A stretch of 64,000 nt of DNA from assembly GCA_963662655.2 (NCBI GenBank), contig CAXXTU010000002.1, forward strand, positions 1,344,001 to 1,408,000, given 5' to 3'. Made by a program: the position numbers and the translations under genes. Positions 204 to 56,769 of the stretch are shown here, one piece after another. The notes below the pieces were generated by a model. That model made no database searches and was not told where the DNA came from. It worked only from the letters and a program-made list of their open reading frames with translations. The DNA comes from Candidatus Cloacimonadales bacterium. GTDB lineage: Bacteria; Cloacimonadota; Cloacimonadia; Cloacimonadales; JAIOQZ01. Position 1 is the first letter of the stretch. The number at the start of each line of letters is the position of its first letter.

Positions 204-1010
204 ATGCTTCGCACAACGTTTCTTCTCGTATTCTCGGCACTATCCATCTGTATCCTGGCCGCCAGCGACAAAATAGCCATCACCGGCTCCACAACCGTCT
301 TCCCCATCGCGGAGAAATGCGCGGAAGCGTTTGAATCCGAGCATCCGGAAGTCGAATTCGAAATCGCCTCGACGGGATCGAGCGTGGGGATTTCGTCCAT
401 CATCGACGGCAGCGCAGACATAGGAAACGCGTCGCGTCCGGCCAAGCAGAAGGAGATCGATGCCGCCAGAAAATCCCACATCGAACTGTTTGAGACGCCG
501 ATCGCGATGGATGGCGTGGCCGTGGTGGTTCATCCCGAAAACCCGGTGACAAACATATCGCTGCAACAGCTTCAGGACATTTACACCGGCAAAATCACAT
601 CGTGGAAGGCGCTCGGCGGCGAGGACGCGCCCATCCTGATCATCTCGCGCGATCCGTCGTCTGGTACCTTCGAGGTGTTCAACACGATCGTTCTCAGGAA
701 AAAAGAGCTCTCGCCGACGGCGATTCTCGTGCAGGGCAATCAATCCGTTGCAGATGCGGTTGCCATGACGAGGTACGCGATCGGCTACATCGGTTTCGGC
801 TTCCTGCAGAACGACCTGAAGGCTGTTTCGATCGAGGATATCGAACCAACCGACGAAACGATCCTCAGCGGCCACTACGCGATTTCCCGCAAGTTGTTCA
901 TGTACACCGACGGCAAGCCGGAAAAAACCGTCGGGGAATTCATTCGCTTCATCCTCTCTCCCAAGGGGCAGCAGATCGTGCGGGAAACCGGCTTCCTGCC
1001 GGTGCGATGA
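204..1010 (+). CDS. pstS: Phosphate ABC transporter substrate-binding protein PstS
   Basis: Motifs ITGSTTVFP, STGSSVG, ADIGNASR, ISRDPSSGT, AIGYIG; signal peptide; AGGAG before ATG 204. No pstCAB follows. Confidence 0.9.
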   Translation: MLRTTFLLVFSALSICILAASDKIAITGSTTVFPIAEKCAEAFESEHPEVEFEIASTGSSVGISSIIDGSADIGNASRPAKQKEIDAARKSHIELFETPIAMDGVAVVVHPENPVTNISLQQLQDIYTGKITSWKALGGEDAPILIISRDPSSGTFEVFNTIVLRKKELSPTAILVQGNQSVADAVAMTRYAIGYIGFGFLQNDLKAVSIEDIEPTDETILSGHYAISRKLFMYTDGKPEKTVGEFIRFILSPKGQQIVRETGFLPVR

Positions 1011-1011
1011 T

Positions 1012-1437
1012 TTACTGAATGGGCATGATATCCTGGGGCTTGTCGGGATCGATATCCACGTGGATAAATTGTTTGTCCCTGTAGATCACAATCCGCCGGA
1101 AACCTGCTTGCAGAAGCCCATAGACGATGCGGAAACGCAATGCGTGATCCGTGGCGGAGATGTCGGCAGCCAGTCCCTTCATGTGGCTGGAAGTGGGTGA
1201 ACCGCCGATCTCCCGGTTGTGCTTCTCGCATCGGTAGCCGGAATTGATCCTGAAAGGCACGCCGGCGATCTTCCTGGCGGCATCCAGCATCGAAACGAGT
1301 TGGGCTGATATATTTTGCGAGTTGCAGCAACGGCACTGAAATTCTTCTGCCCGGAAGTGTCGAATCGAACGCCAGTCCGGCGCTGTAATGAGATATGCTC
1401 CTCCTTCCGAAGAAAGAGGAGCTTCCGTTCTCGTCAA
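1012..1437 (-). CDS. Phage-type endolysin, peptidase M15A (D-Ala-D-Ala carboxypeptidase-like)
   Basis: HF..EF.C.CC, INSGYRC..HN..IGG...SSH..G.AAD, FIHVD. Start uncertain: TTG 1437 overlapping the upstream stop, or ATT 1389 after a Shine-Dalgarno (SD) sequence. Confidence 0.85.
   Translation of the reverse strand: MTRTEAPLSSEGGAYLITAPDWRSIRHFRAEEFQCRCCNSQNISAQLVSMLDAARKIAGVPFRINSGYRCEKHNREIGGSPTSSHMKGLAADISATDHALRFRIVYGLLQAGFRRIVIYRDKQFIHVDIDPDKPQDIMPIQ
1397..1422 (-). promoter_or_regulatory. UUCG-tetraloop hairpin sequestering an AAGGAGGAG SD sequence
   Basis: Minus strand GCTCCTCTTTC-TTCG-GAAGGAGGAGC, an 11-bp stem. Confidence 0.6.
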
Positions 1438-1610
1438 CGGGCCCACCCGAAGGCGGAGTAGAGAATCAGTTGAAGAATCTCCACCGCGCTGTCGTCGAGC
1501 TTGTTTTCGGTCTTCTCTGCTACATCCTTCAGCCAGTCTAGGAAAACGTCCACGATCACCTTGACGGGCAGAATTCTCATGATGTGCTTCATGATGCTTG
1601 TCCAATCCAT
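1434..1610 (-). CDS. 58-aa amphipathic phage lysis-associated protein (holin/disruptin-like position), missed by the ORF track
   Basis: AAGGAGG SD then MDWTSIMKHIMRILPVKVIVDVFLDWLKDVAEKTENKLDDSAVEILQLILYSAFGWAR; the KTxNKLDD motif is typical of small phage proteins next to endolysins. Confidence 0.7.
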   Translation of the reverse strand: MDWTSIMKHIMRILPVKVIVDVFLDWLKDVAEKTENKLDDSAVEILQLILYSAFGWAR

Positions 1611-1633
1611 GAATCCCTCCTTGCGAATACCGT

Positions 1634-2083
1634 TTATACGGTTACACTGATGTTCTTCAAATCGATGTACTCCTGGCTGATCAACTTGAGGTACACGCTG
1701 TCGTACTGCGGATACGGCAAGCCGCTCTCGCCCGATGCGAACGGCTGATATTTCTCGATGACGAAGATCACTTCCCAGGCGTTTGTCCCGGAGGCGTCGC
1801 CGTGAATCCTCAGCTTGATCGTCTCCTGAGCACGTAAAGCCTTGAAAATACCCATGGCGTCACGGTCGAGGTTGTAAACGACGAGCTCCGCTTGCATGCG
1901 TCCGTAGTCCTCGCAGGCCGCCTTCTCGTGTATCGAGATTTTGCCTGTTATCGACGAGGTATGAAAAATCCTGTCCTTTACCCAGGAGTATTCGAAGTTA
2001 CAATCTTCTTGTGAAAGGTCCCAACTGGAACCGTAGGATGTCCCGTAGAAGATGACGGGAGCTTGGGTGCCCCAATATGCCAC
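1634..2083 (-). CDS. Phage distal-tail (Dit)-like small tail protein
   Basis: 149-aa beta-rich ORF directly after the tail-tip gene in the operon; GGAGG SD. Function inferred from position. Confidence 0.45.
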   Translation of the reverse strand: MAYWGTQAPVIFYGTSYGSSWDLSQEDCNFEYSWVKDRIFHTSSITGKISIHEKAACEDYGRMQAELVVYNLDRDAMGIFKALRAQETIKLRIHGDASGTNAWEVIFVIEKYQPFASGESGLPYPQYDSVYLKLISQEYIDLKNISVTV

Positions 2084-3859
2084 TTATGCCTCCTGTTTGA
2101 TTTCCGAAGTGAAGTTGACCAGATCGTCCACCTTGCGGACGTAACGCTCGTCCGCTTCTGCCGTGAGCTCCGTTTTGACGTTGATATAGGCGATATCGCG
2201 CCGGAAGGTGGAATCGAGGATATCGACGAGCTGTTCTTCGAGCGCGGGACTGATATCGGTGATCTGGTTGCTTGTGCTCGCATGTCTCTGTAGGGTGAAA
2301 TGATCCGTCAGGTTCACGTCGATGACCGAGTTCTTTACCTTGTAGGAGCTGCTGATGTTGTTCGCCGATATCTCCTCCGAATCGGATGACGTCCAGCTAT
2401 CCCAGTAGTTGATTCCCGACGACAGGCGTATTTGATTGACCTGATAATACTTACGCTGCTTTTCGACGCTCTGCCGGAACGCGATGATCTTCTCGTCGCT
2501 GTAAGAAACCGTGCTGTAACTCGTTCTCCGGAACTTCACGACCGAGTCGTCGATCAGGAATGTCAGCCTTAGAGCCAGAAGGAGTTCGCGGAACAGGGTC
2601 AGCATATCGGCGCTGTCGTTGTCCTCTTTGTTGCCCCTGCCGGCGTACATCAGACTGTATTGGCTCACCGCGAACCATTTGTAACTCATTGCGCTGGATG
2701 AATCCGTGTAGTCGGACGCGGCATCAAAAATCCCGGCAGTATCGACGGAGAGGATATTATCGTATTGCAGGAAGTAGATCGCGCTTTTCAGCAGGTAAAG
2801 CGCACTCACCCATCTTCTCGAACTGACGCCGACATCGTAGAAATACTCCGTCGTGCTGTAGTTCGAGCCCGAGAACAGCACCGGCGTAATGTTGCTCCAC
2901 CAGTCGGTTCGCGATGCTGCGAACGTGCTGGAGCCGGTGAGATAGCAATCGGAAGAGACTTGCTCCAGCGCGGTGAAGATGCTCTCGCAGTAAATACGCT
3001 TCAAGCCCTCGTCCTGCTCCTCGATACGGTGCACGCGGTAGAACCAATTCTCCTTACCGAGCGTGACTTCTTCGATGGCGATGGTGTCGTTGATTCGGAT
3101 GGCGTCATCGCCGTACCAGATAAACGACATGTCACACAGCACGGGGGTGCGGAGACTGTCGGTCTCCTGCTTGAGCTGGGAGATGTCCATCACCTGATCG
3201 GAGATATCCGTCTTCGTTGCCCAGAAATCAGAAGGCATTGTACCACTAACGGTTGCATCAAGGATGTTGAAGTGATCCTTGACCGTCATGTAACCGGCTC
3301 CACCGTAGTTTTTGTAACCAACGAGCCTTCTATGCGTGGACGATCGCGTGTACCAGAAATCGAAGATCGTACCGGTGAAGTGTCGCAGCGGAGCGTTTGA
3401 GACATCGCTCGTCGCTCCCACAAACAGATTTGACGTTGCCAGCGTTCCGGATGAAACGCACGACCTCGATTCCGAGAACACCGGGTTGTTGTATTGATCC
3501 CGGACGGCGAGGACGATCTCCGGTGTGGCGGAAATGTACACGCTGACGTTGTAGATTTCATCGGCATTGAGCTCCAGATCGCCGAAATCGTAATCGGTAT
3601 CCAGATAGCGGACGCGCAAGTAGAAGTTATCGCTTGCGTTGAGTATCTTCAAGCTGTACACGTCGTCACCATTCCCCATGCCCCAGACACATTGCTCGGT
3701 TGGTAGCAGCAACATGGACGACAGCCGGAAACGGCACTTGACGGGCGAAAGGATGTCTGTTGTTGCCAGCGTCGCGTTCGTATCGACATACACCGCCCCG
3801 TTGAACTTCATGCCGTTGTAGTGGTCTCTATAATGCCAGATTTTCACCTGTGCCATCAT
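2084..3859 (-). CDS. Phage tail-tip/hub protein with N-terminal LamG/concanavalin-A-like domain
   Basis: Follows the tape measure gene; MKFNG...NLFVGA...FTGTIFDF resembles LamG; then TDISDQV, typical of tail proteins. Confidence 0.6.
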   Translation of the reverse strand: MMAQVKIWHYRDHYNGMKFNGAVYVDTNATLATTDILSPVKCRFRLSSMLLLPTEQCVWGMGNGDDVYSLKILNASDNFYLRVRYLDTDYDFGDLELNADEIYNVSVYISATPEIVLAVRDQYNNPVFSESRSCVSSGTLATSNLFVGATSDVSNAPLRHFTGTIFDFWYTRSSTHRRLVGYKNYGGAGYMTVKDHFNILDATVSGTMPSDFWATKTDISDQVMDISQLKQETDSLRTPVLCDMSFIWYGDDAIRINDTIAIEEVTLGKENWFYRVHRIEEQDEGLKRIYCESIFTALEQVSSDCYLTGSSTFAASRTDWWSNITPVLFSGSNYSTTEYFYDVGVSSRRWVSALYLLKSAIYFLQYDNILSVDTAGIFDAASDYTDSSSAMSYKWFAVSQYSLMYAGRGNKEDNDSADMLTLFRELLLALRLTFLIDDSVVKFRRTSYSTVSYSDEKIIAFRQSVEKQRKYYQVNQIRLSSGINYWDSWTSSDSEEISANNISSSYKVKNSVIDVNLTDHFTLQRHASTSNQITDISPALEEQLVDILDSTFRRDIAYINVKTELTAEADERYVRKVDDLVNFTSEIKQEA

Positions 3860-4913
3860 AGCCTCCCCTGTTCATTCGTCTGCGCGCCGAGTCGATCCGC
3901 ATGATCGCCGTTTCAGCGTCTCCGCTCCCGCCTGCCGTCACGCTGAATTCTTTCTTGATCAGGTTGATGTTCAGCGCACGGAGTTGCGTGGAAATCCGGT
4001 CGAGCTTCTCCCCCAGGCTACCGGAGCTCCCGTGGTTGATTGCATGGAGAAGATCGAGATTCCCGCGCGCCGCTTGCGCGCTGATTACATACTCGCCGTT
4101 GCTGAGAAGCGCGGGGATCGAGTCGGAAGTCGAGCTTCCCGGGCCGGACACGTAACCGCCGTAGGCGTAGGTTTGCGCCTCGATTTCCGCGACGTTCGCC
4201 GCCGTTTTCGCTGTCGCGACCGCTGCCGCGGCCGCCGCGACCAGCGGCGCAGCCGATCCACCGTATTTCATGCCCCATGCGTATGCCGATTGCACCGCCT
4301 GAAGCCCGTCCAGGATCGCCTGGATCATGGACAGACGCTTCCAGGTCTCGAAGCCCTTGCGTCCATACGCGCGAGCGATGTCCGCAAGGTCGCCGAACAT
4401 ATCCGCGGTACCCTCCAGAAGCTCCCTCTGACGGGCCTGCTCCCGCTTGAGGTACTTCTGGCGAATCCCGTCGCGATCCTTCTCATAGTACTCCAGAATC
4501 GTGCGACGCGCTTCCTCGTGCTCCTCGTACATCGCGCGCTGCTTCTCGTACTCCTGCTGCTGGAGCTCGGTCCTGGCGATGATCAATTCCTGCGCTCCGG
4601 CCAGCGATTCCTTTGCGTACTGCTCCTGGGATTCCACCGCGCTGAGCAGCAACTCGTTGCGACTTCTCGCCTCGTCCCGCATCCACTGCACCTGCTGCTG
4701 ATGGCGTTCGCGCATATCGGAAGCCGAAGATTTTCCGGGAAGCATCTTGCGGGACGCTTCTCCCAGAGCCGACATCGAACCTCTGGTCGCATCGAGCGTC
4801 TTCTGAAGGTTCTTCAGCAGTTGATCGGTGCTGCTCAGCGAGTCGTTGAGCGTGCGCACGCTTCTACCGCCTTCAATGAAAATCTGGTTATCCCATGTTG
4901 TATTTCTTTTCAT
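3828..4913 (-). CDS. Short tape measure protein (361 aa)
   Basis: Coiled-coil body, Ala-rich segment and C-terminal YAYGGYVSGPGSSTSDSIPALLSNGEYVI motif of lambda-family tape measures; ATG 4913 after GAGG. Confidence 0.85.
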   Translation of the reverse strand: MKRNTTWDNQIFIEGGRSVRTLNDSLSSTDQLLKNLQKTLDATRGSMSALGEASRKMLPGKSSASDMRERHQQQVQWMRDEARSRNELLLSAVESQEQYAKESLAGAQELIIARTELQQQEYEKQRAMYEEHEEARRTILEYYEKDRDGIRQKYLKREQARQRELLEGTADMFGDLADIARAYGRKGFETWKRLSMIQAILDGLQAVQSAYAWGMKYGGSAAPLVAAAAAAVATAKTAANVAEIEAQTYAYGGYVSGPGSSTSDSIPALLSNGEYVISAQAARGNLDLLHAINHGSSGSLGEKLDRISTQLRALNINLIKKEFSVTAGGSGDAETAIMRIDSARRRMNRGGYDGTGENLAL

Positions 4914-5235
4914 TCTGTCCTCGTTCCTGCTTTTCCGCCAGCGTCTCCTGCTGGATTCGTTCCGCGAGCGAATAGAGCTCCATGAACCACCCGGGCTGAG
5001 CCCGTTGGTCACCCGGCCACGGATACCGCACTCCACCGCGTGAATTCTCGATCAGATAGCTCAATACAAGCTTCACGGCCGGTAACATCCTCGGAAACGG
5101 AGTTCCATCTCTAGCTCTCTTGCACGTCTCTCTCGCGAGACAGTTCCCACAGAAGGTATGATCCCCGGCGAAGCTGGTTATAACGCCCTCCCAGCGATCT
5201 CCGGAGAAGATCATCAATCGGAGGGCGTGCGTTAG
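4888..5235 (-). CDS. Tail assembly chaperone C-terminal extension (gpGT-like), reached by -1 frameshift
   Basis: The -1 frame after A AAA AAC reads LTHALRLMIFSGDRW...CGNC...YPWPGDQRAQPGWFMELY; lies between the chaperone and tape measure genes. Confidence 0.75.
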   Translation of the reverse strand, partial: LTHALRLMIFSGDRWEGVITSFAGDHTFCGNCLARETCKRARDGTPFPRMLPAVKLVLSYLIENSRGGVRYPWPGDQRAQPGWFMELYSLAERIQQETLAEKQERGQNEKKYNMG

Positions 5236-5633
5236 TTTTTTCGGATCGCCTCGCGGTTCCGGCGATACTCCTCTTCCATCGAGCCGATCTCTTCCCAGAG
5301 AAGCTCCAGAACATCCTCCCTCAGCAGATTGACGCTCTCCAGCGTCACCGAGCGCTCAAATACCCAGCCCTCGCGGTCTACGCGACGGCTCACACCGTCC
5401 AGCTCTCCGCCCAAAGCCAGCACAACCTTCGCCAGGCGGAGGGTTTCAGGCTGGACACCTTCGTATACCGGTTCTTCTCCGTTGAAGGACATCTTGCCCA
5501 TGAATGGCAGCAGCGCGTCCCGGTCCAGGGGCCGTAAATGACGGATGGTCGCGATCCGCTGACCGTCGAGAAAGACGTCACGCGTCAGAGCGGCCCCGTG
5601 ATCCTCGAAACAGTTCTTGATTTTATCGCTCAT
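5232..5633 (-). CDS. Tail assembly chaperone (gpG-like), 133 aa
   Basis: Lies between tail tube and tape measure; ends CGA AAA AAC TAA (slippery site). Confidence 0.75.
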   Translation of the reverse strand: MSDKIKNCFEDHGAALTRDVFLDGQRIATIRHLRPLDRDALLPFMGKMSFNGEEPVYEGVQPETLRLAKVVLALGGELDGVSRRVDREGWVFERSVTLESVNLLREDVLELLWEEIGSMEEEYRRNREAIRKN

Positions 5634-5641
5634 ACCGCCCC

Positions 5642-6598
5642 CTACGTAACGATGATCTTTACGGAGGGATTCGTATTGTCCGCCATGAGCTGCACGGTTG
5701 CGGAAAACGCGAATATCTGCCTCTCGGGATCGGCCGGATTCACCGCGGTGATCTTGCCGTTGGTTTCGACGACCCACTGATGCGTTCCGTCCGTGAGTGT
5801 GAAATCGACGTTGCCATAGGTAACATCGCTGGAAAGCAGCTCATCCTCGAACCAGCCGCTGGCGGAGTCGTAATTCGTATCGAAGGTCGCCTCTCCGCTG
5901 AAACCTTCGATGAGCTCCCGCCGCTTGGTGAATGAATTCTGGTAAAGCGCGTTCTCGTTGATGAAGCGATTCGCCAGTGAGAGGCTGAATGAATTGAAGC
6001 TGCTATAGGCGGCATCGAAGAGATTGATCGAGTGGATGTCGCCAACCAGGAAAGGCTTTACGTGCGGCGTCGCCACCATTCCATAGGCTGCGTAATCGCC
6101 GGATGACAAATCGACCTCCGTCTCGATGCTTTTAACCCTGAACACCGCTTCGAAGGTGACCGTGCCGTTGCTTTCGCCGGTGATGTTCATGCTCTCCAGG
6201 ACGCATCCCGTGGCGACATTGCCCTTTGCATCGTCCGTGAAATATTGGTGAATCTCATACGAGAAGGGGGTGTTGCCCGATTGAACCTGGTATGGCGAAG
6301 CGCTCTTGGAGAAAAGCCCTTGCAACATGATTGCGTGCAGGTGGGAAAGCTCGCCGCTGATCGTGACCGCTCCCCCTTTCCTGCCGGCGAGAACCTCGGA
6401 GTGGTAAGGCTCGATTTTCCCTGTCTTGGCACGTACGGTGATTGCTTCACGCGTGGGCTTCATCACAATCGAGTTCGCCAGAATGATATCGATCGAGCTG
6501 TAGTCTCCCGCATAGCTTCCATAACCGCTTCCCGTACCGGATTCCTGTTCCTTGAACAGAGTAATCAAATACCTGTTCCCATATCGATATGCGCACAT
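5642..6598 (-). CDS. Phage tail tube (major tail) protein
   Basis: Pattern KEQES..YG, GAVTISGEL, SYEIHQ, ATGCVLESMNI, FSLSLAN, SGEATF typical of siphoviral tube proteins. No sheath gene. Confidence 0.75.
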   Translation of the reverse strand: MCAYRYGNRYLITLFKEQESGTGSGYGSYAGDYSSIDIILANSIVMKPTREAITVRAKTGKIEPYHSEVLAGRKGGAVTISGELSHLHAIMLQGLFSKSASPYQVQSGNTPFSYEIHQYFTDDAKGNVATGCVLESMNITGESNGTVTFEAVFRVKSIETEVDLSSGDYAAYGMVATPHVKPFLVGDIHSINLFDAAYSSFNSFSLSLANRFINENALYQNSFTKRRELIEGFSGEATFDTNYDSASGWFEDELLSSDVTYGNVDFTLTDGTHQWVVETNGKITAVNPADPERQIFAFSATVQLMADNTNPSVKIIVT

Positions 6599-6612
6599 AG
6601 TTCCTCCTTTGG

Positions 6613-7065
6613 TCAGTCGTCGTCTCGCGTGTCGAGAATCTGCATTCTGAAGCAGATCTTGCGGATGTTGAGATTGTTGTAGATGCCCGGCTCATGGTAG
6701 TCCGTCGCTTCGCCGCGAACCTCACCCTTTTCGATGGAAACCGCTTCCAGATTGTGGATGTATTCGGCAATGCCGACCGCACCTAGTACCTTGTCGATGA
6801 TCACGTCCCCAAGGACGTTCATCGTAATGACCCGGTTCTGTCCCGGGCGATGATATAACCAGACATTGATCTCGTAGGAGTAGCGAATCTGGCCGCCGGC
6901 CAACATCACGTATTCCGGCTGATCTCCATCCTGAACCAGAACCGCAGGCAGTTTCCTTCCGATGCGATCGATGTCGTCCGGAAACTCTCCCACATACTCG
7001 AATAAATCCTCGCTGCTGAACAGGGTTTTAATCCAGTTGATTACTTCGTTTTGATATGCGTGCAT
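6613..7065 (-). CDS. Tail terminator / tail completion protein
   Basis: 150 aa, LPAVLVQDG..., located between adaptor and tube genes. Confidence 0.6.
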   Translation of the reverse strand: MHAYQNEVINWIKTLFSSEDLFEYVGEFPDDIDRIGRKLPAVLVQDGDQPEYVMLAGGQIRYSYEINVWLYHRPGQNRVITMNVLGDVIIDKVLGAVGIAEYIHNLEAVSIEKGEVRGEATDYHEPGIYNNLNIRKICFRMQILDTRDDD

Positions 7066-7074
7066 TGGTTCACC

Positions 7075-7812
7075 TCATCGTTTGATTCGCGTTGAATAGT
7101 TGATGTTCGCTCGATACTTGTCTACGGCGCCGTCGAGAGTCGTATCCAGATTGACGGCCTTGGACGCCGCGTCGAAGTGGTCCTTGAACACGCGATGGTA
7201 AAACTCGGCCTTCGTCCAGTACATCTCTCGGCCCATCGCATTTGCCAGATCGGTGTAGATCAGGTGCAAGGAGAGGTAGTCGCTGCAGATGTCGAATAAA
7301 TCGGGATTGGCAACAATATCCAGGAGGACTTTTCCGGAGGCTTCGTCCACGGAGTAACCCTGCGTCGAGAGAAGATTCTCCAACCTCCTGCCGATGATCT
7401 TCTTCGCCATGGCGATCTTGTCGAGCCAGTTGGCGCTAACCGTATAGGTTGCGTGAACGTCTGTTGAATCCAGCTCCGCATGGTTTCCGTTTCCCGAAAC
7501 GTCCAGAGCGGTCAACTCCACGCCCTCATCGCAGTGATACTCGGCGATCCTCGTTCCGTCAATATCGTAGCCGATGATCTTGAAGATAAATGTCTTCTCG
7601 GGCAATACCCAGATTTCATCGACATCCACCGATCTCATACTTCCCACCGGATTGAACCACTCGATACGTCTGATCTCGGGAGGAAAATAGAGCCTGTGCC
7701 CTGTGGAACCGCTGTAGCATTGGTGAACCGATCCCCCGGCAAGGATGTTTACTTCCGCATCGATTCGGGCAATTGAACTGGGCGTCGATAGAACAACGTT
7801 TTCCCAAGCCAT
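7075..7812 (-). CDS. Head-tail adaptor-like protein with an internal beta-domain insertion
   Basis: Position after the cement gene; helical C-terminal part (YLSLHLIY..., YWTKAEFY..F..HF, DTTLDGAVD). Confidence 0.55.
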   Translation of the reverse strand: MAWENVVLSTPSSIARIDAEVNILAGGSVHQCYSGSTGHRLYFPPEIRRIEWFNPVGSMRSVDVDEIWVLPEKTFIFKIIGYDIDGTRIAEYHCDEGVELTALDVSGNGNHAELDSTDVHATYTVSANWLDKIAMAKKIIGRRLENLLSTQGYSVDEASGKVLLDIVANPDLFDICSDYLSLHLIYTDLANAMGREMYWTKAEFYHRVFKDHFDAASKAVNLDTTLDGAVDKYRANINYSTRIKR

Positions 7813-7863
7813 AGATGATCTCCTTTTGATTGCGGGGAGAGGTTTCCCTCTCCCCCGATTTCA

Positions 7864-8319
7864 CTATGCGAGTGTGTGCAGAAACGCGTCGATTTTCTGC
7901 GCTGAATTGCTGGTCGTGGTCGTGTAATGAAGCTGCACGTAGGGGCGGTCTCGCAGCAATCCTTCAGGGATTGCGATGGCAGTGATGAGATCGCCGGCGC
8001 TGAAGGAAATCGCTCCATGGGTTGTATCTTTATACAAGAGATGGAAGCAGGCATTATTCAGCCAGCCGTTGGCGCTGTTCTTGAATGGAGGTGCGGCGCT
8101 GGCTGCATTTGCCGTTGCGGAGCATTCCAACTCGATTAGCAACACCTCGTCCGTCGCAATGGTTATCGCCGTGTTCGCGTATACGCGCAGCTCGACAATC
8201 CCTCCGCTGTCTCCCGCATAGCAGATATTGGTCGAGTCCATACCCGTTCCGTCGAATACGGCCTGGGCGTCCGAAAGCTTCATGTCCTCTTCTACAAGGT
8301 ATCCGTAAAATTTGCTCAT
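7864..8319 (-). CDS. Capsid cement/decoration protein (Bbp16-like)
   Basis: LSDAQAV...STN...YVQLHYT...KIDAFL resembles BPP-1 Bbp16; directly follows the major capsid gene. Confidence 0.7.
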   Translation of the reverse strand: MSKFYGYLVEEDMKLSDAQAVFDGTGMDSTNICYAGDSGGIVELRVYANTAITIATDEVLLIELECSATANAASAAPPFKNSANGWLNNACFHLLYKDTTHGAISFSAGDLITAIAIPEGLLRDRPYVQLHYTTTTSNSAQKIDAFLHTLA

Positions 8320-8328
8320 GGCTTGCTC

Positions 8329-9288
8329 CTAAATGGTTTCACTGGACGAGATGTTTTCTTCCAGAACAACAGGAATTCCATTCCAGCGTTCGATCAGCTT
8401 GTTGTAATCGGTATCCGCGCTCGAAACCTGCATTTTGCTTTCTTTGAGTTCCCAAAGCAGCCTGCGGCCGGTTCGATTGCAGTAGATGAATGTGTCACTC
8501 ACGCTTCCGCGAACCATGTCAATCAACTTGTCCATGTTGCCGGAAGTAGGCTTCTTCCCTGTCGCATCCTGGATGGAAACGTAAGCCGCGACGTTATCGG
8601 TTGTCGCGACAAGCAATCCCATGTAGGCTTCGTATAGGGCCTGATATACGGGCTTCACGGCGCCGGTTGAAGTATTGACGACAACCATCACCGGAGTTCC
8701 GTTGTTCAACGGGCGCACCGTTATCAGATGACCTTCCGCGAAGGCGTTCTCGTTGAAGAGACCGCAGCATGTGCCGGGTTTCCAGCGCACGGCGAGGATT
8801 GTGGTCCTGCTTCCCGAAGCTCCGGTCGCGTCGATAGTATTGCTGTTTGCGACAGCGTGCTGGCGGAGACCGGTGAATCCCTCCTCGTTGCCGAGAGATG
8901 TGTCGGTTCCGTAAACAAGCTGGCGCGCCGCCGTCTGGCCGAGTCCCTCGACAAACGAGGGAAGCTCATCGGCAAAGTACTTCTCCACGCCACCCGGGTA
9001 ACTCTCGCAGATCGCCTTGTCTTCCTGCTGGATGTCGGTGAGAATCTTGAGATCGGATTGTTGCACGATGTCCTCGGTGGTATGCGGAACGATGGAGCCG
9101 TTCACGGCACGGAAACCGCCGCCCGGGAGTTCCGGCTTGATTTTGAACTTGTGAAAGATGCCATGACTCGCCTTGATGAACGGCATGGTTGAGAGAATTC
9201 CGGATTCTCTGATCAGAGAATCGATGATCGATGTCTGGTTCGGTACGTTGTATGCCGCAGCCAGTTTCATGAGTGTTGCACTTGCCAT
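8329..9288 (-). CDS. Major capsid protein, HK97 fold (BPP-1 Bbp17 / epsilon15 gp7-like)
   Basis: IIDSL..ESGIL..MPF, LP..GFRAVN, LVYG..., GFTGL, TTILAVRW, IYCNRT, WNGIPV...ENI..SE. Confidence 0.85.
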   Translation of the reverse strand: MASATLMKLAAAYNVPNQTSIIDSLIRESGILSTMPFIKASHGIFHKFKIKPELPGGGFRAVNGSIVPHTTEDIVQQSDLKILTDIQQEDKAICESYPGGVEKYFADELPSFVEGLGQTAARQLVYGTDTSLGNEEGFTGLRQHAVANSNTIDATGASGSRTTILAVRWKPGTCCGLFNENAFAEGHLITVRPLNNGTPVMVVVNTSTGAVKPVYQALYEAYMGLLVATTDNVAAYVSIQDATGKKPTSGNMDKLIDMVRGSVSDTFIYCNRTGRRLLWELKESKMQVSSADTDYNKLIERWNGIPVVLEENISSSETI

Positions 9289-9855
9289 TTATCCTCCAAA
9301 TGCCTTGAAAACTTCAGTTAAATCCGTCCGCTTGCAGGGCTTGATTCCCTGAATCGGGCGAGCGCTGTCGTAGGTTTGTTCTTTCTCGAAGTATCCTGCC
9401 TTGAGATACGGCTTGATCGTCTGCAAGTTGTGATTGATGTCATCGGGAGAAAGAGGTTCCGTATCCGTTCCGAACCGGAAATCATCCCGGATCCGAAGCA
9501 TCTTCATGTACCGGGGATCATCCTCCGGAACTTCAAAGAAACGCTCGTACTCCTCCCAACGCTTTCTCCTGGATTCCTGAACCTGAACCCTCAGACCCTC
9601 GAGTTCTTCCTGAAGCGCTTCGACGTTCAGGTCTTCGAATCCCTTGAGCTTCCGCTTGTAACCTTCGAGCTCCAACTGCAGCTCCCGGACCTCCTCACGA
9701 AGTTCGTTTCGCTGAGAAATGACTTCGTCGAAGCGTGATTTGGGTATCTGGTTTTCGCTGGAAGCTGTCTGGATTTCGTCGAGAACCAGTTGCAGATCGT
9801 TCAGCAGATCGTTGTTCTCAATGGCGTGTTTCGCCAGGATATCCGTTAATGTCAT
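9289..9855 (-). CDS. Capsid scaffolding protein (GP20-like)
   Basis: IPKSRFDEV motif followed by coiled coil; directly upstream of the capsid gene; GGAGG SD. Confidence 0.75.
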   Translation of the reverse strand: MTLTDILAKHAIENNDLLNDLQLVLDEIQTASSENQIPKSRFDEVISQRNELREEVRELQLELEGYKRKLKGFEDLNVEALQEELEGLRVQVQESRRKRWEEYERFFEVPEDDPRYMKMLRIRDDFRFGTDTEPLSPDDINHNLQTIKPYLKAGYFEKEQTYDSARPIQGIKPCKRTDLTEVFKAFGG

Positions 9856-10099
9856 TGTCCCTCCATTTGCTATCGCTGTTTTGTCAGCGTGTATTGGCGT
9901 GTGATCCGTTCGATAGGCACAGCGGTGCCATTAGTCTTACGGCCAAGAACTAAAGGTGAACTTGAATAGTTTGAAACGAAGCGCTCAGTACAACGTGATC
10001 ATGGGAATGATTCGCTAGCTGAGTCGCGTAAGATGTCATCATTTTTTACGGTGCATGCCACCGGTTTCACAAATTTGTCCGAGCTACATACTCACCGGC

Positions 10100-10128
10100 A
10101 ATATATACGATACCTAAATAATTGTCAA
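10100..10128 (-). promoter_or_regulatory. Sigma70-like promoter for the phage-like operon
   Basis: Minus strand TTGACA-N17-TATATT, about 240 nt upstream of the scaffold ATG. Confidence 0.7.
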
Positions 10129-11843: not shown

Positions 11844-12046
11844 GCGGCGGGACGGCGTTGAAAACTCATTCGCCCCGCGTTGATTCATGCAACACCGAAT
11901 TCTGAGAACCAATTATGAGGCATGAACCAGCGCGGGGCTTTCCATGAGTTTTCTGGGAACGATTTCCCGTACAACCATAATCCATTTCGTGGTTCATCAA
12001 GCGGGAAATCGTTTCGTGCGCGCAGCGCACAACGCCGTCCCGCCGC
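11844..12046 (+). repeat. Four-way-junction structured repeat, copy A
   Basis: P1 11844-59/12031-46, P2 11860-69/11944-53, P3 11956-70/12001-15, P4 GTGCGC-GCA-GCGCAC 12016-30. Confidence 0.8.
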
Positions 12047-42939: not shown

Positions 42940-43896
42940 CTATTCTACTTTTTCGAGGATTATAATCGAATTAAATAAACTCCTAAGAATAACTATATCT
43001 TCTGATGTAAAGCGCCCAATAGGAGATGCTCCGTTTCTTACATTGGTTAGCTCCTCAAACTCGATCTTACACTCACTAACAGCTTGTTCGTTTATTGAAA
43101 AAAAGTGCTCTATTCCTTCTCGTGGAACATTATAAAAATCCATAAAAGTCGGATCATTGATTATTCTTAAAGAGTTAACTGCTTTCATCATGGCAAGTTT
43201 TGCTGCTTGATTCTTTCCAGACTGATAGTGACATAGAGAAAGGGCAAGAAAGTATGACACAGAGTATTCAAATTGATCCAAAGTTTTGATACTACTGATT
43301 GATGATTCTAAATAGATGGCAGCTTGTTCATATTCTCCAAGACTATAATATGCCCATCCTCTCATGTATTGCAGAAAAGGAAATACGCCATCATCTTGAG
43401 AGCAATTCATTCGTTCGATTCTCAAAATAATCTCATGATATTTCTCATCAACATTCAACACTTTTAAGAGTAATATTTGATCCGAAATATTTCTTGATAC
43501 TTTTTCATTGAACAGCTTAGAATAGCTCTCTTTCTCAGCATTTTTACCTAAATATGCAGTCACGCCAATTAGTTTTGCGAGTACTGCCGTTGTATTAGAA
43601 ATGTAAGGAATACCATCTTTAAGAACATCGTATGATTTTTGCAAAATATCTTGGAAATTATACACATTGGCAAGCCACATGTATGGTGTGTCTTTCTGTG
43701 GAAATAAGCTTATCATCTCGCTTAATGTATTTTTCAACTTTACTGTGTCCCCATCTAGTTCATAGCTTATTGCTCTCGATAAATATTCATGGTACCCATC
43801 TTCTTGAGATGCCTCTAGGTTTAATACGCAAGCACTTACTACAATAGCAAAAATTAATACATTCTTGTATATCTTATCCATATCAAGCTCCATCAC
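42940..43896 (-). CDS. AT-rich TPR-repeat protein with signal peptide; putative immunity protein
   Basis: Coupled to the Rhs-CT stop; TPR-like YMRGWAYYSLGEYEQAAIYLE; low GC. Confidence 0.55.
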   Translation of the reverse strand: MMELDMDKIYKNVLIFAIVVSACVLNLEASQEDGYHEYLSRAISYELDGDTVKLKNTLSEMISLFPQKDTPYMWLANVYNFQDILQKSYDVLKDGIPYISNTTAVLAKLIGVTAYLGKNAEKESYSKLFNEKVSRNISDQILLLKVLNVDEKYHEIILRIERMNCSQDDGVFPFLQYMRGWAYYSLGEYEQAAIYLESSISSIKTLDQFEYSVSYFLALSLCHYQSGKNQAAKLAMMKAVNSLRIINDPTFMDFYNVPREGIEHFFSINEQAVSECKIEFEELTNVRNGASPIGRFTSEDIVILRSLFNSIIILEKVE

Positions 43897-44666
43897 TATT
43901 CAATATCTTCTGTATTGACATCATTCACAAATTCATCGTCTACTTGTCCCCGAATTATCGATAATAAATCACCTTGTAATCGTTGAATAAATAATGATAA
44001 CAGATCAGGTAGGCCAGATCTAGGATCCCAATCTGCAGCCGGACTGACAATATCGTAAGCTCCAAGCTCTAATGTTGCTCGAGTTCTATTAATATACTGT
44101 GCGTTACCAAGATTTCGTTTCGCTTCATATGCGTTAATCCCTATTGAATGCTCTATAGCTCGATCAGCTAAGATTTTTGCATCAACGGACATATTTAACA
44201 AAATCCCCGTCACCTTAGATTTGCTTGATATTCCAGAAACTTTAAACGAATTCATTTCGTATTTTAAATTGGCCCTCATGTCTACTGATTCTTCTGAAAG
44301 AAAGGTTTCGTAATAGCTTAATACATTATCAATTGCCTTGAAATATCCCGTTGTAGTATATGTCTCATTTCCATCGGGATCAATCTTGTTCACCGGGTTA
44401 TTCCCTACACATACATACGGACTATGGAACTCATCGGCGGGGTCCACCTGCTGCCATCTGCCAAGCTGCGGATCGTAGTAGCGCGCGCCGTAGTGGTACC
44501 AGTTGAGGTTGAAGTCGTCCTCCAGCTCCTTGCCGCTGTAAGTGTACTTGGTCTCCGGGCTGCCGGTAACATGGCTTAGGCCAGCCATCTTCATCCCGAA
44601 CGGATAGTAGTGGTCTTCCTGCATGATGGTCAATCCACTACCGGCTCTGTCCTTCTTGAAGCTCAT
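43896..44666 (-). CDS. Orphan Rhs-repeat core plus variable C-terminal toxin domain
   Basis: YYPFG, YTYSGKE, YHYGARYYDPQLGRW..VDP, PYV.VGNNPVNKIDPDG, then an AT-rich C-terminal domain. Confidence 0.8.
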   Translation of the reverse strand: MSFKKDRAGSGLTIMQEDHYYPFGMKMAGLSHVTGSPETKYTYSGKELEDDFNLNWYHYGARYYDPQLGRWQQVDPADEFHSPYVCVGNNPVNKIDPDGNETYTTTGYFKAIDNVLSYYETFLSEESVDMRANLKYEMNSFKVSGISSKSKVTGILLNMSVDAKILADRAIEHSIGINAYEAKRNLGNAQYINRTRATLELGAYDIVSPAADWDPRSGLPDLLSLFIQRLQGDLLSIIRGQVDDEFVNDVNTEDIE

Positions 44667-55395: not shown

Positions 55396-56081
55396 TCAAG
55401 TACGCCGTAATCCAATTCCCCGGCTCGAACTGCGATCACGACAGCCTCTGGATACCGCGTCTTCGCGGTCAGAGATCGAGCATGATCTGGCACAAGAATC
55501 ACGACCTCGGTTCCCCCGACGTCGTGATTCTTCCCGGCGGTTTTTCCTATGGCGACTACCTGAGAGCCGGCGTCATCGCCAAGTTCTCGCCGATCATTCA
55601 GGAAGTGGCGAAATTCGCGGACAAGGGCGGCATCGTCATCGGTATTTGCAACGGATTCCAGGTTCTCACCGAAACCGGCATGCTCCCGGGCGCACTCATG
55701 ATGAACCAATCGCTGAAGTTCATCTGTAAGCATCAGCACATACGCTGCGAGAAGGCGGGAACGCCTTTCACCAATCAATTGCGGGAGAAGCAAGTGCTGG
55801 ATATTCCCATCGCGCACAAGGAAGGCAACTACTTCATCGATGCCGATGGGCTCAAACGCTTGCAGGACAACAGCCAGATCATCTTCCGCTATTGCGATGC
55901 CGAGGGCAACATCACCCCGGAAGCGAACCCGAACGGCTCGCTGTACAACATTGCCGGTATCAGCAACGAAAAGGGGAACATTCTGGGCATGATGCCCCAC
56001 CCCGAACGCGCTGCCGAGGACGTTGTTACAAGCCATGACGGCACTGGTATCTTCGATTCGATCGAAGCCTGGCTGGGCTGA
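55392..56081 (+). CDS. purQ: FGAM synthase glutaminase subunit PurQ
   Basis: FPGSNCD, PGGFSYGDYLR, GICNGFQ, GMMPHPER. Confidence 0.97.
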   Translation: MIKYAVIQFPGSNCDHDSLWIPRLRGQRSSMIWHKNHDLGSPDVVILPGGFSYGDYLRAGVIAKFSPIIQEVAKFADKGGIVIGICNGFQVLTETGMLPGALMMNQSLKFICKHQHIRCEKAGTPFTNQLREKQVLDIPIAHKEGNYFIDADGLKRLQDNSQIIFRYCDAEGNITPEANPNGSLYNIAGISNEKGNILGMMPHPERAAEDVVTSHDGTGIFDSIEAWLG

Positions 56082-56769
56082 TCTTCTCTCGCTGATCTTC
56101 CCGCGAACCTGTCTGGGTTGCGGTGAGAGGATCGTCAATGGCTGGCTTTGCGACGAATGCTACGAGCATCTTGAGACCGAATCGGGCACGCTTTGCGCCA
56201 AGTGCGGATCGAAGCTGGCCGGGGACGGTACCTGCTCGCACTGCCGGGAGATGCGGTATCGCTTCGACGGAGCAGCGTCCGTGTTTCCGTTCGACAACAC
56301 GATGCGAAACCTGATCCACGCGCTGAAGTACGACGGCCTTTACTCGATCTCGGACTGCCTGATCGAGAAATCGGTGGAGTTCCTGATGCACTACCGTCCC
56401 TTAGAGATGCGCATCGACGTGGTCTCGCCCATTCCGTTGCATCGAGTTCGGAGAAGGCACCGCGGCTACAACCAGGCAGAGCGCTACGCTAAGGCCGTCG
56501 CGAAGGCGATGGGCTGGCAGTATCGCCCGAAGCTACTCGAACGAAGCCGCTACACGATGACGCAGACAAGTCTGAATCGCTCGGAGCGAAAAGAGAATCT
56601 CTCACAGGCGTTTGTCGCTCGCGAGGATGTGACGGGGAAAACGGTGTTACTGGTCGACGATGTGTTTACATCGGGCTCAACCGCGAGTTCCGCAGCCGGC
56701 GTTTTGAAGGACGCTGGCGCGAAAATTGTCAATGTTCTGACAATCGCTCGAGCGTGTTGGGATAATTAA
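56023..56769 (+). CDS. comF: ComF/GntX family protein (zinc finger plus PRTase); start uncertain
   Basis: Four CxxC, LKY, PIPLH..R...RGYNQA, LLVDDVFTSGST. Confidence 0.9.
   Translation: MLQAMTALVSSIRSKPGWADLLSLIFPRTCLGCGERIVNGWLCDECYEHLETESGTLCAKCGSKLAGDGTCSHCREMRYRFDGAASVFPFDNTMRNLIHALKYDGLYSISDCLIEKSVEFLMHYRPLEMRIDVVSPIPLHRVRRRHRGYNQAERYAKAVAKAMGWQYRPKLLERSRYTMTQTSLNRSERKENLSQAFVAREDVTGKTVLLVDDVFTSGSTASSAAGVLKDAGAKIVNVLTIARACWDN

Follow-up and report, generated by a model that had tools for sequence, protein, structure and literature searches.

RcGTA-type gene transfer agents (GTAs) of Alphaproteobacteria have an HK97 capsid and a prohead protease and keep their terminase, portal, head and tail genes in one cluster. 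The PBSX particle of Bacillus subtilis has a contractile tail and is encoded at a single locus, while phage satellites (PICI and cf-PICI) carry an integrase, a primase and att sites and take their tail from a helper. Few GTA lineages are known, and the accessible text of PMC11841831 treats their frequency outside the Alphaproteobacteria as an open question. We found no report of GTAs in Cloacimonadota in a literature search that left most subscription journals outside, and a preprint on the phylum mentions prophages in a legend only. Here we describe a head-tail-lysis operon in a window of 64,000 nt (the whole stretch of DNA analysed; assembly GCA_963662655.2, G000:C2:1344001-1408000) from the genome of a Cloacimonadales bacterium, G000 (3.81 Mb in two contigs, 98.95% complete). 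G000 and seven relatives form family f1, with 8 genomes in four genera, including genus g1 (with G000-G003) and genus g2 (G004 and G007), and the phylum survey covered these 8 and 224 others (232 genomes). Unlike the known GTAs, the GTA-like particle is predicted here from genes. On this evidence the operon very probably belongs to a domesticated phage particle system shared by the whole family, and domestication, probably at or before the ancestor of f1, is well supported.

A particle gene set split between two operons

The operon consists of 13 open minus-strand frames at window positions 1012-9855, intact and tightly packed (spacing -32 to +51 nt), much as a preliminary description of this DNA had reported. 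Two details are corrected here: the chaperone frames G and GT are one frameshifted gene counted as two open reading frames (ORFs) in that tally, and the endolysin starts at a TTG at 1437. The gap of 1 nt to pstS and the lack of att repeats were also described correctly, as no exact word of at least 10 nt is common to both flanks. No tRNA adjoining the operon was found. Among neighbours taken from the ORF lists, no integrase or replication gene stands beside it or beside the packaging operon described below, and the six integrase-family matches in G000 all lie away from both loci.

That terminase and portal genes are missing, as first claimed, is true of this locus and untrue of the genome. A search of G000 for PF03237-type terminases gave one match, inside a three-gene operon of terS (140 aa), terL (411 aa) and portal (458 aa) at G000:C2:1733634-1736683, about 380 kb from the head-tail-lysis operon. 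A separate CTTGACA promoter precedes it, an ABC transporter gene lies on one side and ordinary host genes on the other, and the operon matches phrog_309 TerS (E = 3e-14), phrog_2 TerL (E = 2e-41) and the phrog_533 portal, with PF03237 and PF17289 over cut-off. The Walker and nuclease-type motifs, whose roles we take to be the usual ones, are intact in the alignment. Head, tail, packaging and lysis genes are thus all chromosomal, several minor ones being assigned by position. The earlier proposal of a host-maintained system with portal and terminase elsewhere is borne out by this operon, which is conserved and under purifying selection; its presence is also why we rejected the alternative offered at the time, a DNA-less capsid/tail device.

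The split recurs in other genomes. In G001, a closed single-contig chromosome, the packaging operon lies more than 1.5 Mb from the head-tail-lysis operon, and in G003 and G006 the two are on different contigs; in all three the packaging block stands behind its own promoter. In g2 the terminase-portal block starts 1.7 kb past the last tail gene, and, although its portal is orthologous (51% identity), it has a non-orthologous TerL (24% over 322 residues). On a 38-kb uncultured viral contig from IMG/VR (L053/L054), homologs of the two halves follow each other in a single run. The order is the same, and its TerL, portal, scaffold, capsid, cement, adaptor, terminator, tube and GT are homologous at 25-43% identity (capsid 43%); it differs in being unsplit, in possessing minor-head and neck genes, in the length of its tape measure (899 aa) and in its unrelated tip protein. 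Phage-like loci in G011 and G119, members of other families (TerL identity 49% and 38%, respectively), likewise resemble the Cloacimonadales element in gene order and homologous genes; they lie on short contigs, where a prophage and a sister element cannot be told apart. The viral contig shows the ancestral unsplit order and, given this single run and the adjoining orthologous portal of g2, the two loci are halves of one ancestral morphogenesis module. A metagenome scan returned only the contig already represented by L053. Among cultured phages the capsid reaches about 25% identity to phiV10-like phages in 36 records, and the portal has no match.

Distribution, selection and inheritance

Absence from close relatives, which the preliminary description had named as grounds for doubt, is not what we see, as the capsid gene is present in 10 of the 232 genomes: 8/8 of f1, and G011 and G119 among the 224 others. 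The portal was found in nine genomes of the phylum, including 6/8 of f1; it was missed in G002 (90% complete) and G005 (81%), where TerL was not found either. G002 also has no close match to the gene neighbouring the packaging operon, which fits an assembly gap without proving one.

Ratios of non-synonymous to synonymous substitution rates (dN/dS; Nei-Gojobori, four of the six within-genus pairs) ranged from 0.037 to 0.276 over all genes present (16), against 0.03-0.08 for rpoB and recA, so this proposed check also came out in favour of a maintained system. Portal and TerL lie at about 0.07-0.14; no gene is more conserved than that of the capsid, and the tip protein ranks with the faster-evolving ones. 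Between G004 and G007, 9 of 11 genes fall at 0.005-0.137 and two are saturated; between G000 and G006 the values are 0.09-0.38 except for the tape measure, and deeper pairs are mostly saturated. Third-position GC of the capsid gene goes from 0.42 to 0.83, in parallel with host rpoB (0.27 to 0.78), and the operon has 51-61% GC per kb against 51% for the genome. Codon usage correlates with the genome at r = 0.96 and 0.94, compared with 0.84-0.97 for random host sets and 0.84-0.89 for four G000 prophage regions.

An element tree (8 of the 13 genes, 11 taxa, LG+G4, the distant G004 capsid locus left out) and a host tree (rpoB and recA, 10 of 16 genomes fetched) agree on (G000,(G001,(G002,G003))) and on the g2 clade. 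Congruence with the host, another suggested check, is limited to these nodes because deeper host nodes have only 56-83% support; these aside, the pattern is one of clade-wide vertical inheritance under purifying selection. The site of the operon is fixed within the genus. Of the synteny proposed earlier (pstS-cluster-comM), the pstS flank is found in 3/4 genus members, comM adjacency is seen in G000 only, and nothing is shared beyond the genus, where operon neighbours vary from genus to genus. An ammonium-transporter/pilin-like block flanks the operon in the other three members and lies about 40 kb off in G000. As the adjacency is confined to G000, we rejected a functional link to comM. Overlapping read-derived contigs span both operon junctions with no listed differences, and depth is flat over the operon (from contigs only, possibly of the source sample).

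Function and rival explanations

We favour, with moderate confidence, the reading that a domesticated siphophage now serves as a GTA-like particle system packing host DNA. Since capsid, portal, terminases, tail and lysin are under selection and the means of excision or replication are lacking, the particles could load only DNA already in the cell. Upon induction in some cells, scaffold and gp7-family capsid proteins would assemble on the portal, the terminase would fill heads with headfuls of host chromosome, and a short non-contractile tail (about 50 nm by the tape-measure length rule) would join the head. The M15 peptidase would then lyse the producing cell, and recipient cells would recombine the delivered DNA; dprA and comEC are present in 5/5 genomes tested, both genes being common generally. 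The particle is predicted to be unable to propagate its own genes because these are split and not replicated.

Several observations count against a GTA-like role. Known GTA TerS proteins have no helix-turn-helix (HTH) domain in the accessible descriptions (PMC11841831; PMC6854486), whereas the G000 TerS retains one at its N-terminus (PF13384 over cut-off, residues 17-49). A search of five genomes, made with no positive control, turned up the ancestral minor-head gene in none of them. The g1 and g2 operons lack the neck/tail-completion gene, as does G000, so DNA delivery could be dispensable. G000 and g2 are also without two accessory tail genes, and the g2 operon is without an endolysin. We found neither an activator nor a shared operator, and a promoter matrix built from nine relatives recovered only the operon's own promoter, not the packaging promoter. 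The G000-G006 tape measure has a dN/dS of 0.87, on a 26% alignment; support for deep host-tree nodes is weak; and element dS between G004 and G007 (0.5 to saturated) exceeds that of rpoB and recA (0.3), perhaps through exchange of alleles or a weaker codon bias. The GTA-like function is predicted from genes and unproven, neither particles nor packaged or transferred DNA having been seen so far. With the minor-head and neck genes gone, and the two accessory tail genes too in G000 and g2, a non-transducing role is also conceivable.

The retained HTH would be explained if the element were a site-directed domesticated transducer, a reading we consider doubtful, in which the TerS HTH recognises a chromosomal site (terS itself or a palindrome in the operon leader) and processive headfuls are packaged from fixed loci. 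We would liken this, with similar reserve, to lateral transduction without a prophage. PF13384 is matched more weakly in G001 and G003 than in G000, and G006 has an HTH-like stretch by eye. The leader palindrome occurs once in each genome that has it, with hardly any variation, and it is absent exactly in g2, with its non-orthologous TerL and an upstream 108-aa ORF (the TerS candidate) that gave no HTH match. This correlation is a single evolutionary event and therefore only a lead, and a palindrome just behind the promoter suits a transcription regulator equally well. A pac site sought through codon conservation in terS was also dropped, as nothing clear emerged (no conserved-codon block; longest run 3 in three sequences). 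It is conceivable, though we doubt it, that the host keeps the HTH-bearing terminase in a separate operon to load chosen chromosome regions, perhaps from the leader palindrome, and that in one genus an HTH-less terminase of other origin took its place and the palindrome disappeared; if true, the family would be a natural before-and-after pair for GTA terminases losing sequence specificity. The loss of minor-head and neck genes and the faster evolution of the tip protein would also suit a PBSX-like particle that packages host DNA and, without transducing it, uses its tail against competitors or serves as a decoy; PBSX itself is called a non-injecting GTA-like element in the available part of PMC12946183. 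We hold this to be unlikely, given that the capsid is the most conserved gene, that portal and TerL are held at low dN/dS, and that no sheath or toxin gene was found among the family matches of the operon.

Related viral sequences such as L053 and the several prophages and remnants of G000 with related lysis and tail genes raise the prospect of anti-phage interference, in which the genomes of related phages entering the cell would be diverted or wrongly packaged by host-encoded heads and terminase, and promoters resembling ordinary housekeeping ones would fit such a role. Interference would however need neither a full tail nor programmed frameshifting nor a lysis cassette, and identity to phage parts is just 25-43%; we consider it quite improbable. 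That the operon is a normal or decaying prophage, or arose as an artefact of assembly, is highly improbable: its genes come from a phage and certain lineages have lost some accessory ones, but family-wide presence, purifying selection and amelioration argue against decay, and the recurrence of the split in the closed G001 chromosome and the contigs covering both junctions argue against an artefact. We also rejected the idea that the operon borrows the motors of other prophages, since those regions have a different portal family and capsid type and no match to these genes.

Genes and leader of the operon

The gene identities first proposed are upheld by family matches for scaffold, capsid, tube, tape measure and M15 endolysin, and the cement, adaptor, terminator, tip and Dit labels rest on position, as does the assignment of a 58-aa protein; these six gave no informative match in family, PDB-sequence or Atlas scans. 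All features are on the minus strand. The scaffold protein (188 aa, 9289..9855) matches phrog_194 (E = 2e-4) and, below cut-off, PF06810 (E = 1e-5). It is followed by the gp7-family major capsid protein (319 aa, 8329..9288; PF20911, E = 5e-23; phrog_212), which also matches PDB 3j4u (E = 4e-11) and 3j40, presumably BPP-1 and epsilon15. No prohead protease was matched in the operon. The putative cement/decoration protein (151 aa, 7864..8319) hits a family of unknown function (phrog_427, E = 0.003) and no PDB sequence, and its homolog occupies the equivalent place in L053. The putative head-tail adaptor (245 aa, 7075..7812) has no family match and a variable insert of about 100 aa (146 aa is the length of the G005 form), and the putative tail terminator (150 aa, 6613..7065) has an L053 homolog that precedes the tube. 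The tail tube protein (318 aa, 5642..6598) matches phrog_290 (E = 5e-7) and, below cut-off, PF18906 (E = 9e-5).

Tail assembly chaperone G (133 aa, 5232..5633) is assigned by position and by the -1 slippery heptamer A AAA AAC at its end (5235..5241), which is in phase in 8/8 family genomes, not in G011, and supports a working G/GT frameshift. The GT extension (4888..5234) is an open -1 frame with a conserved Cys-rich block. The short tape measure (361 aa, 3828..4913; phrog_25241, E = 3e-16, and others) compares with 767 and 899 aa in phage-like relatives. The putative tip/hub protein (591 aa, 2084..3859) has 26 distant relatives, with a named family in 0/18 scanned and no match among PDB sequences. 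For the putative Dit-like protein (149 aa, 1634..2083), Atlas neighbours are viral hypothetical or tail proteins (0.91-0.93, low recognition), a lead only. The 58-aa lysis-cassette protein (1434..1610; phrog_402, E = 7e-6) has a homolog before the M15 gene in a prophage remnant, and the M15 endolysin (141 aa, 1012..1437; PF08291, E = 1e-21; phrog_894) has a TTG start that overlaps the preceding stop.

The sigma70-type promoter TTGACA-N17-TATATT noted earlier stands at 10100..10128, agrees with the consensus at 11/12 bases and keeps its -35 box in 8/8 family genomes; a scan alone would not single it out, with five promoter-like sites against a shuffle mean of 6.1. Behind it, the inverted repeat CGGTG-N5-CACCG with an A-run (10039..10070) is nearly invariant in 6/6 aligned leaders and may be an operator, antiterminator-loading or packaging site. 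It is single-copy in each of 6/8 family genomes, with two further matches among the 224 other genomes. A leader RNA was rejected: there is no Rfam match, folding gives z = -0.17, and covariation support is lacking because the stem letters never vary. A second short inverted repeat directly before the scaffold ribosome-binding site (9874..9889) is imperfect in G001 and G005.

Other observations in the window and family

In the window, a perfect 17-nt inverted repeat (copies 169 nt apart, 11844-12046) after comM resembles a miniature mobile element, and a ComF-like gene by eye lies at 56023-56769. An RHS-core-like ORF (43896-44666) beside a low-GC (34%) TPR-like gene looks by eye like an orphan toxin-immunity remnant. 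A CRISPR-like repeat array lies a few kb downstream of the G006 operon (L015:16600-20000, G006:C32). Directly downstream of the portal gene are 3-4 tandem copies of a 72-nt unit (L021:12760-12995; G000:C2:~1736760-1736995), and 11 kb from the packaging operon is an orphan divergent cI/Cro-like HTH trio with a 142-aa ORF (G000:C2:1748011-1749629; L022:4012-5630), a possible regulator or remnant. The G011 relative has two tandem tube-like genes (L018:3927-5862, G011:C328).

G000 also carries an ordinary-looking prophage ending at tRNA-Arg (G000:C2:3377000-3419500), with integrases, repressor-like genes, its own head/tail genes and an inserted element, and phage remnants at C2:345000-365600, 478000-491000, 2743700-2758000, 3309300-3322400 and 400-9800. 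These remnants, of which four are near-identical copies, have a protease-capsid-like fusion, an M15 lysin and apparent methyltransferases; the one near position 350 kb has a phrog_12 portal, and no second PF03237 terminase was found for the G000 remnants. The two accessory tail genes that are in-operon in G001-G003 and G006 have G000 homologs in prophage regions only (C2:345259-346391 and 3388668-3389519). A Mu-like prophage (L019/L020; G004:C13:64000-93000) has a distantly related capsid of the gp7 family (31%) together with a member of the 58-aa lysis-cassette protein family.

Comparison with known gene transfer agents

The Cloacimonadales element resembles the GTA class (RcGTA, CcGTA, BaGTA, VSH-1), as far as the accessible text of PMC11841831 describes it, in having only structural, packaging and lysis genes and no replication genes, in several loci hundreds of kb apart, in vertical inheritance and in a short tape measure. 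The portion of PMC12946183 available presents FpGTA of Faecalibacterium as similar in its two distant operons, in its anaerobic host outside the Alphaproteobacteria and in being near-ubiquitous in its clade. There, TerS, TerL, portal and capsid stay together and the tail and lysis genes are split off; FpGTA is podovirus-like, with a TerS without a DNA-binding domain (PMC12946183, same portion). The Cloacimonadales element instead splits off its packaging block and has a sipho-type tail. It shares with PBSX, according to that portion of PMC12946183, the character of a domesticated prophage packaging host DNA, and differs in that no sheath gene is seen.

It does not group with RcGTA-type elements, having a gp7-family capsid with scaffold, no protease match, a split packaging block and a Cloacimonadales host, or with phage satellites, as neither locus has an integrase, primase or att site and the tail genes are its own. 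The names BaGTA, VSH-1 and FpGTA are absent among the 27 capsid homologs listed, with no direct comparison to their genes. The element belongs to no known GTA family, its separation from BaGTA, VSH-1 and FpGTA being made without direct sequence comparison. Known GTAs differ in phage ancestry from this element, with its gp7-family capsid, scaffold, lack of a protease and SPP1-like portal. In them accessory genes are split off, whereas here it is the whole terminase-portal block; and their TerS is HTH-free, whereas here TerS has an HTH and no GafA-like activator was identified. If our reading is true, a phage would have been domesticated independently in a phylum without a GTA report in the literature searched. 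The contrast between g1 and g2 makes the hypothesis that HTH loss leads to random packaging testable, and the element offers both a close phage relative, which shows the losses, and two terminase types in one family.

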